From: Clostridia bacterium
GTDB taxonomy: Bacteria > Bacillota > Clostridia > RGIG6154
Length of the DNA: 64,000 nucleotides
Direction: 5' to 3'
NCBI GenBank assembly: GCA_017410375.1
Contig: JAFQQW010000051.1
Span: forward strand, 102,733 to 166,732
Position 1 is the stretch's first letter, and each line of letters opens with the position of its first letter. The notes below the pieces were generated by a model. The model had not been told where the DNA came from, searched no databases, and worked only from the letters and a program-made list of their open reading frames with translations. The position numbers and the translations under genes were made by a program. Below are positions 7-10,246 of this stretch, one piece after another.

Positions 7-36
7 CTATTCGTCGGTTTTCAGTACCTATTCGTC
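7..36. repeat. 30-bp imperfect direct repeat, left copy (ctattcgtcggttttcagtacctattcgtc); partner at 10217-10246
   Basis: 27/30 identity with 10217-10246 in the same orientation; flanking sequence diverges on both sides. Confidence 0.7.
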
Positions 37-50
37 AGTTTAAGCATAAA

Positions 51-80
51 AATAAGGCTACCATAGTAGCCTTATTTTTT
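51..80 (-). terminator. Rho-independent terminator hairpin (ataaggctac-cata-gtagccttat) flanked by A-run and T-run, bidirectional
   Basis: 10-bp perfect stem, 4-nt loop, T6 on plus strand and A5 upstream; lies 3' of the minus-strand RHS operon. Confidence 0.7.
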
Positions 81-94
81 GTGAACAATATGTT

Positions 95-678
95 TGCTGT
101 CAAGTCGCCTGCTGTTTTTTGGGTTAAGCGGTTTGCGCCCTCACAGGTTTGGCGGTGCTGATGCCCTTGCGGTCGGTCATGGATTTTACGGTACCATCTA
201 AGTTGTACACATAGGTTACGCTATCGTCCAAGGCATCGGTAACGGTAATAGGCTGATTGAGGAAGTTATATTTATAGGTGGTGGTAGACTGTTCACCTGT
301 GTTGCCTACTGTTTGGGTGAGCATTCTGCCACCCTTGTCATAGGTATAGTTGACCTCGGTGCTATCGCCCTTGTTGTTTTGGCTTACCTTTTTTAAGTTG
401 TTATTGGCATCATAGGTATAGTGGATATAGGAAACTTCGTTTACTTCTCCAAAGGGGTTTGTAAGATACCCTTCTTTAATCATATTGCCGTTTCCGTCAT
501 ACCAATAGTTATGCCAAACGGTGGTTTCGCCCTCGTCATAAGCTTCAGAAACCAACTCGTTACGGGGATTGTAGGCATAATTCATAATAAAGCCGTTTGG
601 CGCCTGTGTTGCGTACATATTGCCATAAGCATCATAGTAAAAGGAATGAGTCCGGCACAATACCGAACTCATTCTCAA
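95..678 (-). pseudogene. RHS/YD-repeat internal fragment, a diverged duplicate of residues ~1061-1252 of the adjacent RHS gene; no N- or C-terminal parts
   Basis: Nucleotides 95-651 align to 2916-3490 at ~92-95% identity; the 184-aa ORF matches the main protein almost residue for residue; homology ends abruptly at both sides. Confidence 0.8.
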
Positions 679-732
679 GCAAGTTAATGTTTAATTTTTG
701 GTCTAAACTTTTAGGCTATCTTCGTTAGAAAG

Positions 733-6686: not shown

Positions 6687-9600
6687 TCACTCTTGATAAC
6701 ATTTCAAATTAATATGACCTTCTACTTTTGAAGTGAATTCTAGCACATGAACCAGACCACTCCAATAGCTTTCGTCTAAAACTTCCTCTGTTGTGTACTC
6801 AATTTTAAGTATACCTTCGCTGTTCTCAACAACCTCAGTTGCCCCATGATTATTCGGAATTACATGCTGAATAATGTTGTCCACTTCATCATCTGTAAGC
6901 TCTAACATATGCGCATCATATTCAATAACCATAACTGTTTTACCTTCTGCTTTTTCTTTTGCCGTCACCGAAACATATACTTTTTCACCCGGTTTTACAT
7001 ATTTAATTAATCTGCCGTCCTCAACAACTGAAACGTCTTGAAGCACCTGTAAATAATATGGTGTTGCAGTTCGTCCTGCAAATGTTTTAATATAAAAATG
7101 TGTTACGTCGGTATCTGTTTCATCTGTATAATATCCTCCGTTTACAGGCTCTACTTTCTCCCACTCTCCTTGATGCTTTTTATATACATAAAATGTTGCA
7201 TCCTTGTTTTCAGAAGACATTGTGATATTATACTTTGTAGCAAATCGACTTACAGGAAATTTATAATAATCTCTATCGGTTTCGTAGTCAAAGTAAAGTG
7301 TTTTTTCACCCTGATTATATGTATGTTCGGCACTTGAAAAATCTGAAAAATCGATATAGTATTTTCTGGTATACCCATTGTTACCTTCCAGCAAAATATA
7401 CCCTTCACGATTTTGAGTTTCACTATTCAACGGCAAAACTGCTTCTAATGTAGTTGCTGCACTCGCTATACATGTATCATTTCCATTATATACATCATGC
7501 AATTCAATTCTCGCACCACCCTCAACCGGATCTTGCGCTGTCACTTTTACTTTAATACCTTCTTCGGTTCGCACAATCGAAGGGCCAAAGGTAAAATACG
7601 GCAAATTCATGTCTTCGTATTTTGCAAGTGTTGCATCATACCCTTCTTGCGTATCTGGCAGAATAATATCATAATCTGTAATTGTTAAATAATCAAGACG
7701 TGCATATCCATACCCATAAAATGTAAGTGTCGCTTGGCCTTTTTTCAAAGCAACAGATTCCGCTTCATCATAATTATAAAAAGCATATTCATTTGATGTC
7801 AAAAAATTACGCTTCATGCCAAAGCCATATAAATTATAGAGGTTGTCTGTTCCACCTATAATCCTATCATAAGTAATATCAAAATTATCATTACTATTTT
7901 TTCCTGTGATTGGGATTTCATCCCCCTCGCCTTGCTTAACAGTAATGCCAAATACTCTCTCAAACGCCTTTTGACTATCTTGAACATTTGGCGAACTTGC
8001 GGCACGGGCAGAAATTTCGTATTGCCCATCCTTAGGAATTTGCACAGTTGCAGTCATACGCACAACTTGTTTTCTATCGTTTACGCGTTTGTCTTTTGCT
8101 TGCATAATCGGATTTCCATAATTTGAATTATACACGCCAAAACCGCTTGTACTTTCAAACCAAACATCCTCGCCAAAAAACTCGGCATCTGTCGGATGAA
8201 CTGTAAAATTATTTCTCGGTGTAAGTAAAATCGTTGTTTTGGATGATGGAACACTAAAAAGGTCTTCTGCCCGTTTCCCGCTACGATTGAATGCTGTAAA
8301 TATCATTGAGTTGTACGAACTGTCATATAATCCTTCTGCCACAAAATCGGTTACATTACCATCGTAATAACCAAAAACTTCTAAAGTGCCGTTGCTTCCG
8401 ATACCATAAACTGCATATCCGTCTATGTGTGTTCCTTCAACTTCGAAAACAACTTCCTCATTTTCGACTTGATAACCGGATTTAGAATAATAGGGTGACG
8501 GATAATTCAGCACTGCCCCAACAGATGCTTCATACATCGCCTCATTCATATTTTGTGACATGGGTTGAGATGCTAAAATTATAAAATCCATAATCGCACC
8601 GGGATATGCGTAAATGTTTAATGTATTAAATCCCTGCTCCAAATAAATGGGTTCAGCATCAGTATACATATGCGGTTTATGTTCAGCAGTAACATAGCTT
8701 CTTCTTGCTCCAAACAAATATCTCGGTTCATCGTTTATCATAAGAGCATTATAGTCGTCATAATCCGATAATTGATCCGATTCCGTAACCGCCTTATCAC
8801 CCTGCACATACTTTTCGACACCATTTTCATAATAAGAAATCATAAATGTACCGAATTTGGGATCATTACTCTCCTGCTTCTGAGATAACGCTCTGGCACT
8901 TACATAATAATTCCCAGATACAGGAACAAAAATCTCTGTTGTATGCTTTAGAGGTTCTCCGTAGTTATTATTTAAAACAGTATATCCGCCCGATTCTTTT
9001 GAGAACGAATATGCAGAATACATATAGTCAATTCCCGCTGACGGAATATTATCTGTAAACGCGCTCCCGGTCACAAATTCTGTTTCAGCATTCAATACAA
9101 TCGCATAATTATCATTTCCGGGATTATATGTAATTGTCTCTTGTAAAAAATTCCCGAATGCATCCCATGCCGTTATATCAATTGTTACAGGTTCAAGACG
9201 ACATAATGAACTTAAATTCAAGCTATGCTCTTTTGTCGAATAAGAATTTGTTCCATAAGTATCTGTAAATGAAATTTCATAAGCAACCGGCTTGTTAGGA
9301 CCTGCTTCGTATTCTAACCAAGAATTTCCTTCTTGTACAGATATAGCAGGTTCTTCTAAAAAAGCAAATGTAGTATTTTCAAATACACCATAAGTCTGTT
9401 GATATTCTGTTTTTGTCTGCACATTAACAAGCGGTTGCTCAGAAATAACCAAAAAATCTAATCGAGAATAACTATTCGCATACAAATTAACCGTTGCTTG
9501 TCCTTCTTCCAGATAAACAGGTACTGCATCAAAGTAATTGTATGACTGTAAATCAGTAACAAATTCCCGCATAGAACCAAACAAATATCTGTTTTGTCCG

Positions 9601-10121
9601 TTGATGTCACAGCTATCAAAATCATACATATTCTCATCAGACCACGGATTGCTACCTGTTACAAAACTTTCAACTGAATTCTGCGTGAACGAAACCTGCA
9701 TAGTTCTGTTCATGTGGTAGTTGGTCTGCGTTACAGGTGTTGTCGTTGTTTTCATTCTGGCGCCTACATAATACATACCTGACTCAGGAATAACAATATC
9801 ACAATTTGTATAACGTGCGCTCGAGCCTGTCGTTACCAAAAGATAAGAACCAAAATTCCCGTTAAACGCGCCACCCGCATTTGCGTCATATGTGAAATTT
9901 TCATCATTAAAGTCTTTACCTGTTAGCACAATAGCATTTGTTACAGTTTGGATGTCTCCATCTGTTGATACTGTGCTTTTTTCTACCGATTCGACACTAA
10001 TTATCTCTGCATTTTCTTCTTCAAGTATCAAATCGTTGCTTAAATCTGATTCTGCAATGGATAATGTTGGAATGCTTAATAGCAACCCAATGCTTAACCA
10101 CAATGCAATCATTTTTCTCAT
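6687..10121 (-). CDS. Large secreted protein (1144 aa from ATG 10121) with three ~180-aa CBM-like beta-sandwich repeats, co-transcribed upstream of the RHS toxin
   Basis: RBS AAAGGAG 9 nt before MRKMIALWLSIGLLLSIPTLSIA; three internal repeats ending ...SRLDFLVISEQP / ...IMDFIILASQP / ...ARLDYLTITDYD; stop 13 nt before RHS start. Confidence 0.8.
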   Translation of the reverse strand: MRKMIALWLSIGLLLSIPTLSIAESDLSNDLILEEENAEIISVESVEKSTVSTDGDIQTVTNAIVLTGKDFNDENFTYDANAGGAFNGNFGSYLLVTTGSSARYTNCDIVIPESGMYYVGARMKTTTTPVTQTNYHMNRTMQVSFTQNSVESFVTGSNPWSDENMYDFDSCDINGQNRYLFGSMREFVTDLQSYNYFDAVPVYLEEGQATVNLYANSYSRLDFLVISEQPLVNVQTKTEYQQTYGVFENTTFAFLEEPAISVQEGNSWLEYEAGPNKPVAYEISFTDTYGTNSYSTKEHSLNLSSLCRLEPVTIDITAWDAFGNFLQETITYNPGNDNYAIVLNAETEFVTGSAFTDNIPSAGIDYMYSAYSFSKESGGYTVLNNNYGEPLKHTTEIFVPVSGNYYVSARALSQKQESNDPKFGTFMISYYENGVEKYVQGDKAVTESDQLSDYDDYNALMINDEPRYLFGARRSYVTAEHKPHMYTDAEPIYLEQGFNTLNIYAYPGAIMDFIILASQPMSQNMNEAMYEASVGAVLNYPSPYYSKSGYQVENEEVVFEVEGTHIDGYAVYGIGSNGTLEVFGYYDGNVTDFVAEGLYDSSYNSMIFTAFNRSGKRAEDLFSVPSSKTTILLTPRNNFTVHPTDAEFFGEDVWFESTSGFGVYNSNYGNPIMQAKDKRVNDRKQVVRMTATVQIPKDGQYEISARAASSPNVQDSQKAFERVFGITVKQGEGDEIPITGKNSNDNFDITYDRIIGGTDNLYNLYGFGMKRNFLTSNEYAFYNYDEAESVALKKGQATLTFYGYGYARLDYLTITDYDIILPDTQEGYDATLAKYEDMNLPYFTFGPSIVRTEEGIKVKVTAQDPVEGGARIELHDVYNGNDTCIASAATTLEAVLPLNSETQNREGYILLEGNNGYTRKYYIDFSDFSSAEHTYNQGEKTLYFDYETDRDYYKFPVSRFATKYNITMSSENKDATFYVYKKHQGEWEKVEPVNGGYYTDETDTDVTHFYIKTFAGRTATPYYLQVLQDVSVVEDGRLIKYVKPGEKVYVSVTAKEKAEGKTVMVIEYDAHMLELTDDEVDNIIQHVIPNNHGATEVVENSEGILKIEYTTEEVLDESYWSGLVHVLEFTSKVEGHINLKCYQE

Positions 10122-10188
10122 ACCTATCACTCCTTTTAAATTTTTGGATAGTTGCGGGATAGAACTATCCACTATGAGAATACAACAT

Positions 10189-10197
10189 ATTATATCA
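10189..10197 (-). promoter_or_regulatory. Candidate extended -10 element (TGATATAAT) for the 1144aa-RHS-immunity operon
   Basis: Reverse complement of attatatca; ~70 nt upstream of the start codon; no good -35, but the TGn extension is present. Confidence 0.3.
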
Positions 10198-10216
10198 AAA
10201 ATCAACATTTACGACT

Positions 10217-10246
10217 TATTCGTCGATTTTCAGTACATATTCGTTA
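10217..10246. repeat. 30-bp imperfect direct repeat, right copy (ttattcgtcgattttcagtacatattcgtt)
   Basis: Matches 7-36; contains internal direct repeat TATTCGT..TATTCGT; overlaps the -35 region of the RHS operon promoter. Confidence 0.7.

Follow-up and report, generated by a model that had tools for sequence, protein, structure and literature searches.

Two nearly identical direct repeats of about 30 bp frame an RHS operon at the start of a 64-kb stretch of DNA from a Clostridia bacterium (assembly GCA_017410375.1, contig JAFQQW010000051.1, positions 102,733 to 166,732; the whole stretch is hereafter called the window), which raises the question of whether they are the ends of an exchangeable cassette or regulatory sites. 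The operon contains genes for a predicted secreted accessory protein, a putative RHS/YD-repeat toxin and a presumed immunity protein. A previous sequence-only reading of the locus preferred the first answer and gave the second as an alternative. Here, we propose from comparative sequence analysis that these 28-30-bp copies are very probably operators of an AgrA-like activator of the LytTR type encoded by a neighbouring agr locus, which would place the RHS operon in a small quorum-sensing regulon.

The repeats and the predicted promoters that follow them

The sequence TATTCGTCGRTTTTCAGTACMTATTCGT on the plus strand was found at positions 8-35 and 10217-10244, which are its sole two matches in the window with up to three mismatches allowed, and 100 dinucleotide shuffles gave no match at all. 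The two copies agree at 26 of 28 positions, and at 27 of 30 over the putatively functional 30-mer (6-35 against 10215-10244), confirming that the direct repeat reported in the sequence-only reading is real. There, the right copy had been placed 1 nucleotide (nt) off, as 7-36 aligns with 10216-10245 and not with 10217-10246. All genes between positions 1 and 10208 lie on the minus strand, and on this coding strand the repeat reads ACGAATAKG-N12-ACGAATARG, i.e. two 9-bp direct repeats separated by a 12-bp spacer.

Further analysis revealed that both window copies are followed on the minus strand by exactly 9 nt, a −35-like hexamer TTGAnn, 17 nt and a −10-like hexamer TAnnnT. The flanks, which had been described as unrelated, are therefore not wholly so, and the right copy adjoins the −35-like hexamer at a distance of 9 nt rather than overlapping it. 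The accessory gene has its ribosome-binding site (RBS) and start codon about 50 nt beyond the right-hand −10 hexamer. On the other side, only 5 nt of the window remain after the left copy, whose promoter hexamers lie just beyond the window start. An intrinsic terminator follows the RHS fragment and precedes the left copy; its predicted fold has a free energy of −17.2 kcal/mol (z −5.3), and none of 200 shuffled sequences folded equally well. Since this strong terminator separates the RHS fragment from the left copy, the two copies head two successive co-directional transcription units, and the RHS operon is the unit in between.

An agr locus beyond the window start

The left flank was taken from public contigs that encode the exact window proteins, namely a 20.5-kb ENA scaffold (L003) and part of a 246,765-bp ENA scaffold (L014); the latter is 99.95% identical to window positions 1-9932 over 9932 bp. 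The genes of L014 in leftward order are a 69-amino-acid (aa) open reading frame (ORF), a P-loop nucleoside triphosphatase (NTPase) gene, two XRE-type helix-turn-helix (HTH) genes, a response regulator gene, a kinase gene, agrB, a 49-aa AgrD-like ORF and the gene of a 1454-aa paralog of the accessory protein. The components of an agr-type system (AgrB, an AgrD-like peptide, an AgrC-type kinase and a LytTR regulator) are thus encoded together. A third copy of the repeat is located 5.6 kb further left than the left window copy, upstream of agrB, where it is followed by 9 nt, TTGAGA, 17 nt and TATTTT as the predicted agrB promoter. The left window copy, the third copy and the right copy align without gaps through the site, the 9 nt, TTGAnn, the 17 nt and TAnnnT. 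A tblastn search of the window and L003 with the Agr proteins of a related locus (L006, see below) detected no agr genes inside the window, and the window response regulator at 43867-44553 is of the OmpR type.

This arrangement suggests a model. At high density, a peptide derived from AgrD would activate the kinase, and the phosphorylated regulator would bind the repeat pair as a dimer and recruit RNA polymerase to three promoters, those of (i) agrBD, which would close a positive feedback loop, (ii) the operon of the accessory, RHS and immunity genes, and (iii) the 69-aa zinc-ribbon ORF with the 691-aa P-loop NTPase gene. The RHS operon would look bracketed only because it is located between promoters (ii) and (iii), which read in the same direction.

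Conservation of the site in related loci

The accessory protein has very few homologs, and no relative was confirmed in the genome contig collection. A metagenome-assembled genome (MAG), GCA_944388555.1 (L006), encodes an accessory protein that is 36% identical, in the gene order regulator, kinase, agrB, agrD, accessory gene, 339-aa ORF and RHS gene. Both the L014 paralog and the L006 orthologs of the accessory gene directly follow agrBD. The kinase-agrB spacer of L006 contains ACGAATAGG-N12-ACGAATTTG, 9 nt, TTGAAT, 17 nt and TATTTT. Homologs of the L006 regulator led to L008 and L009-L013, which carry GCGAATAGG-N12-GCGAATGAG and TCGGTTGAG-N12-CCGTATAAG, respectively, in the same geometry in the interval from the kinase gene to agrB. 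An RHS gene and a 240-aa ORF stand immediately ahead of the agr locus in L009-L012. The RHS-agr linkage therefore recurs, as the accessory and RHS genes of L006 come directly after agrBD and the RHS gene of L009-L012 abuts the agr locus.

Seven promoter regions could be aligned without gaps through the site, the −35 and the −10 region, with C2, G3, T6 and G9 of both half-sites, TTGA and the T/A positions of the −10 hexamer being invariant. A scan for the architecture alone (nCGnnTnnG-N12-nCGnnTnnG-N8-10-TTGA; 207 kb, both strands) gave no match outside these promoters, and in each of them TTGA follows after 9 nt; 0.01 matches were expected by chance per shuffled window. The half-site consensus over the copies is RCGAATDDG. 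Beyond the window, the third copy at agrB and the variants in relatives were found; the contig collections contributed no match, neither for the 28-mer with a partly free spacer (genome and metagenome collections) nor for a relaxed motif that also fits L006 (metagenome and viral collections).

As a separate observation, the related rumen contigs L009 (645-16102) and L012 (2-8381) have the variant-site agr locus directly after the RHS gene, which in L009 encodes 2620 aa with a Peptidase_S8 domain, and in both a gene for a large serine recombinase follows the agr locus at a distance of a few kb. RHS-agr modules may travel on mobile elements in this lineage.

Assessment of the operator assignment

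Sequence, geometry, gene content and conservation were all seen directly; binding, activation, the transcription starts and the signal peptide are inferred. The geometry agrees with that of published LytTR operators. Such operators comprise two direct repeats of ~9 bp, 11-13 bp apart with a 21-22-bp period, mostly with 12-bp spacers and ~10 bp upstream of the −35 region (PMC6193735), and AgrA binds in dimeric form to a pair of direct repeats upstream of P2/P3 (PMC4227749). A 9-12-9 arrangement was found in all copies, in the window and in L014, L006, L008 and L009-L013. LytTR sites precede the −35 region by a few bp (typically ~10) in the orientation of the downstream gene; here the distance to the predicted promoter is 9 nt in every instance. 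A LytTR regulator is encoded at the locus, and a site lies at its own signalling operon, directly upstream of agrB, in L014, L006, L008 and L009-L013.

Several observations weigh against this assignment. The half-site ACGAATAKG differs from the published AgrA and VirR sequences, and agrees at only ~6 of 9 positions with the AgrA repeat ACAGTTAAG. Repeat sequences are, however, poorly conserved between LytTR systems (PMC6193735), so that a half-site match to a published consensus is weakly diagnostic. The regulators of L014 and L006 are ~47% identical, yet their sites are near-identical, and the L009-type regulators, also ~50% identical, have different half-sites; specificity thus does not track overall regulator identity. 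Nor is the motif alone diagnostic, because a full RCGAATDDG-N12-RCGAATDDG match arises inside the trigger factor gene (33420-33449, minus strand; DEF...SEF codons, no TTGA at +9), probably by chance. The right-hand predicted promoter is weak (8/12, under the promoter-scan threshold) and permits alternative −10 assignments, one being an overlapping TGnTATAAT extended −10. The distant accessory/RHS loci L007 and L018 have neither a site upstream nor an agr locus nearby. Moreover, XRE-type HTH genes adjoin the regulator gene in all loci, and their products are possible alternative binders.

The last point leads to the best-surviving alternative, in which the site is an operator bound by another protein, for example one of the neighbouring XRE-family HTH proteins, acting as repressor or activator. 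We regard this as improbable. In L014, L008 and L009-L012, the locus regularly includes the HTH genes, and the half-site is unlike the published LytTR consensus sequences, but XRE-type HTH dimers typically bind inverted repeats, unlike the direct repeats found here. Direct repeats of 9 bp with a 12-bp spacer, ~10 bp upstream of the −35 region and at agrB, rather form the LytTR signature (PMC6193735, PMC4227749, PMC10602386).

It is very improbable that the repeats are recombination sites, whether att-like cores or short homology, at which a cassette made up of the RHS module was integrated, excised or swapped. Two same-orientation copies do bracket exactly one toxin module, the RHS fragment at 94-640 shows past recombination at the locus, the lower G+C content left of the tRNA cluster is island-like, and direct repeats with 26/28 identity could in principle allow rare deletion. 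However, the third copy at agrB lies outside any cassette boundary, so that the repeats are not confined to two element ends, and every copy has an identical distance from the promoter hexamers. Other genomes keep the site upstream of agrB, at a place that is no cassette boundary, and the breakpoints of the RHS fragment do not fall at the repeats. Neither the 10 kb left of the window start (L014), where the sequence-only reading had suggested looking for an integrase or recombinase, nor the Pfam-scanned ORFs of 1-30 kb encode an integrase, recombinase or transposase. Taken together, the third copy, the fixed promoter geometry, the agrB-site conservation and the missing recombinase leave the insertion or exchange of the toxin module as a unit without support. 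The evidence favours the regulatory site at both ends that had been named as the alternative.

Scarcely credible is a third idea, in which the repeat would be a pair of inverted units of some unclassified repeat family, forming the outer edge of the 20-bp tandem-array element at 10257-10440 without any link to agr: the right copy is 13 bp from this array, whose units carry ACGATTA/ACGAATA on the opposite strand, but the left and agrB copies have no adjoining array, the second array (29340-29470) lacks the 28-mer, the units have a period of 20 bp and end in CC rather than KG, and the relatives have the site without arrays, so that the 28-mer as two inverted array units was rejected on period, terminal bases and missing co-occurrence.

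Comparison with known systems

The proposed LytTR operators resemble the Staphylococcus aureus AgrA sites (agr P2 and P3), which likewise belong to an agrBDCA-type system with a LytTR response regulator. They differ in the half-site, ACGAATAKG here as against the S. aureus repeat, and in gene order, with regulator and kinase genes followed by the site, agrB and agrD here and one agrBDCA operon in S. aureus. The −35/−10 spacers are 17 nt here, whereas those of S. aureus are a suboptimal 18-20 nt. No RNAIII-like effector was identified at our locus, where the predicted targets are the RHS operon and the zinc-ribbon/NTPase operon.

The Clostridioides difficile RgaS-RgaR system and the Clostridium perfringens VirR boxes are also clostridial and of LytTR type, with a very small direct regulon marked by conserved direct-repeat pairs 21 bp apart. 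Among the targets are agrBD, toxin genes and small ORFs of hypothetical proteins; the RgaR repeats, which have a critical G at −51 and −72, are located upstream of agrB1D1, small ORFs and a small RNA gene (PMC10602386). Similarly, the G of CGAAT would fall at about −51 and −72 here, if transcription starts ~7 nt after the −10 hexamer. On the other hand, the box sequence differs, the regulator gene lies beside agrBD here and elsewhere in those systems, and the predicted target here is an RHS/YD-repeat operon.

Density-dependent control of bacteriocins is classic. In the LytTR systems concerned (ComE/BlpR/PlnC; HdrR/BrsR in Streptococcus mutans), antagonism and immunity genes are switched on with density, as we propose for the RHS operon. 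Here, the weapon would be a large RHS protein that bears a predicted Sec signal and is accompanied by an accessory protein, whereas theirs is a small bacteriocin peptide. Their sites lie 4-11 bp upstream of the −35 region and are built of 9-bp direct repeats 12 bp apart, and autoregulation occurs (PMC6193735).

RHS/YD-repeat loci with displaced fragments, such as the enterobacterial rhs orphans and Bacillus subtilis WapA, share with this locus the RHS shell, the variable C-terminal tip, the small downstream ORF and a leftover fragment. The fragment here is nonetheless an internal core piece without toxin tip or immunity gene, and the flanking repeat very probably has no part in RHS recombination. 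A full-text literature search returned no account of RHS toxins under the control of Agr or LytTR regulators, including those of the RgaR/VirR type, and to our knowledge no RHS locus controlled by an adjacent agr system has been described.

Genes of the predicted regulon

The features of the locus are listed in Table 1. Between the two copies lie, as the sequence-only reading had it, the terminator, the RHS fragment, a small membrane ORF (there called the immunity gene), the RHS gene, the accessory gene and a promoter.

Table 1. Positions of the predicted operators, promoters and genes of the RHS and agr loci
Feature	Sequence	Position	Strand	Remarks
Left operator (predicted)	window	6..35	minus	ACGAATAGG-tactgaaaaccg-ACGAATAGG, 9-12-9 direct repeat
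Intrinsic terminator	window	43..79	minus	14-bp stem, U-run; closes the RHS transcription unit ahead of the left operator
Internal RHS core fragment, pseudogene remnant	window	94..640	minus	93-94% identical to 2923-3470 of the intact gene; both ends truncated
Small membrane ORF	window	733..1185	minus	called as 150 aa on L003/L014; immediately follows the RHS gene; no known family
RHS/YD-repeat toxin (putative)	window	1190..6673	minus	1827 aa; predicted N-terminal signal peptide; Gly-rich C-terminal tip
Secreted accessory protein (predicted)	window	6687..10121	minus	1144 aa; no Pfam family; RBS AAAGGAG, predicted signal peptide MRKMIALWLSIGLLLSIPTLSIA
Predicted promoter of the accessory-RHS operon	window	10177..10205	minus	TTGATT (10205-10200), 17 nt, TATTCT (10182-10177)
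Right operator (predicted)	window	10215..10244	minus	ACGAATATG-tactgaaaatcg-ACGAATAAG, 9 nt upstream of the −35-like hexamer
Predicted left promoter	L014	9937-9965		TTGACA-17-TAGTAT; just past the window start; heads the 69-aa ORF/NTPase operon
69/73-aa zinc-ribbon ORF	L014	10001-10210		CxxC...CxxC; first gene behind the left operator
Zinc-ribbon ORF and 691-aa P-loop NTPase operon	L014	10001-12471		just left of the window
XRE-family HTH proteins	L014			111 aa and 123 aa; beside the regulator gene
Response regulator	L014	13505-14209		~3.5 kb past the window start; Response_reg and LytTR (Pfam LytTR E 2.9e-19)
AgrC-type kinase	L014			HATPase_c_5 E 4.1e-22
Third copy of the repeat	L014	15505-15534		ACGAATGTG-tcgtgaaaatcg-ACGAATAAG; overlaps the end of the kinase gene, directly upstream of agrB
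AgrB	L014			Pfam AgrB E 1.4e-35
AgrD-like ORF	L014			49 aa, directly after agrB; no Pfam hit; shares MKKIK...SAC...Q..VP with the L006 ORF

The RHS protein gave a Pfam match to RHS_repeat (E 4.7e-34) and a weak match to DUF6531. With a repeat shell, a variable C-terminal domain and a small downstream ORF, it has by sequence the make-up of an RHS/YD-repeat polymorphic toxin, with putative toxin and immunity functions; the small membrane ORF is the presumed immunity protein. For the accessory gene, the longest ORF starts at 10208 (1173 aa, as called on some public contigs), which falls inside the predicted promoter, and the start at 10121, which has an RBS and a predicted signal peptide, is the plausible choice.

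The RHS fragment is frameshifted near its end and carries no toxin tip or immunity gene. It is a remnant of recombination, and its breakpoints, 94 and 640, fall at other places than the repeats. Its interpretation as a C-terminal orphan toxin was ruled out, as it is a piece of the internal core, and an exact database look-up of its 182-aa product found it not on record.

As for the predicted operon behind the left copy, the 691-aa NTPase and the 69-aa ORF matched no defence family in PADLOC and no Pfam family. The 69-aa ORF is carried by four contigs, all with identical neighbours. Its closest homolog (64% identity; L015-L017 set) lies in a prophage between integrase and lysis (holin/amidase) genes and was uninformative on the site.

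Tandem arrays and other features of the window

A module of ~320 bp occurs twice in the window, at 10257-10577 and 29329-29608, with the last 207 bp being ~90% identical. Each module opens with a 20-bp tandem array (consensus AATTTCACGATTACCCYATA; ~9 and ~6 units), after which come ~150 bp with two terminator-like hairpins. The first array (10257-10440) adjoins the right repeat copy, and the second is located at 29340-29470. The end of module copy 2 coincides exactly with the 3′ end of tRNA-His (minus strand); copy 1 has at its end TGGG, the last 4 nt of tRNA-His, with no tRNA after it. The 19 kb between the modules encode AraC regulators, oxidoreductases, a creatininase, a BNR protein and giant secreted proteins, and no integrase was found there. 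The independent contigs L003, L004 and L005 all break within the module, and BLAST of the region 10200-10720 against plasmids and phages gave no match. A second, distinct 20-bp tandem array (GGTTTCATTTT core, ~5 units) at 10601-10710 immediately follows copy 1, in a stretch of ~800 bp without a convincing gene.

It may be imagined, as an unlikely extension of the operator model, that the 20-bp arrays, with ~6-9 half-site-like ACGAWTA units each and duplicated next to tRNA-His, serve as decoy or enhancer binding arrays that set the response threshold of the LytTR regulator, while the Agr circuit directly switches on the Sec-exported RHS toxin operon and the phage-derived zinc-ribbon/NTPase operon.

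The G+C fraction is ~0.35-0.41 to the left (1-29600) of the tRNA-Gly/Arg/His cluster and ~0.42-0.48 to the right (29600-60000), where tig, clpX and other housekeeping genes are located; the tRNA cluster may thus be bordered, on the RHS/agr side, by an accessory island. An Rfam search of the whole window identified only three tRNAs. The trigger factor (32596-34203, minus strand) has a C-terminal extension made of 57-75-bp tandem repeats (32618-32920) with a weak match to the histone-H1-like HC2 family, giving a Lys/Ala-rich tail that is unusual for this chaperone. A perfect 18-bp tandem repeat (GGTTCTTCGGGTATTTCA, 3.7 copies; 62759-62824) in a 1010-aa ORF (60766-63798, minus strand) is probably a coding repeat.

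Biological implications

The analysis removes a false lead, in that recombination sites very probably do not delimit the RHS module. Both the type of site and the switching-on of antagonism genes by peptide quorum sensing are well known. The novelty lies in this instance, a predicted three-promoter Agr/LytTR regulon that includes an RHS toxin operon with a Sec signal, and it provides a testable prediction for an uncultured lineage of rumen Clostridia. The strict grammar nCGnnTnnG-N12-nCGnnTnnG-N9-TTGA is usable for regulon prediction in related MAGs. If the prediction is true, contact- or proximity-dependent antagonism would be tied to quorum sensing in gut anaerobes.

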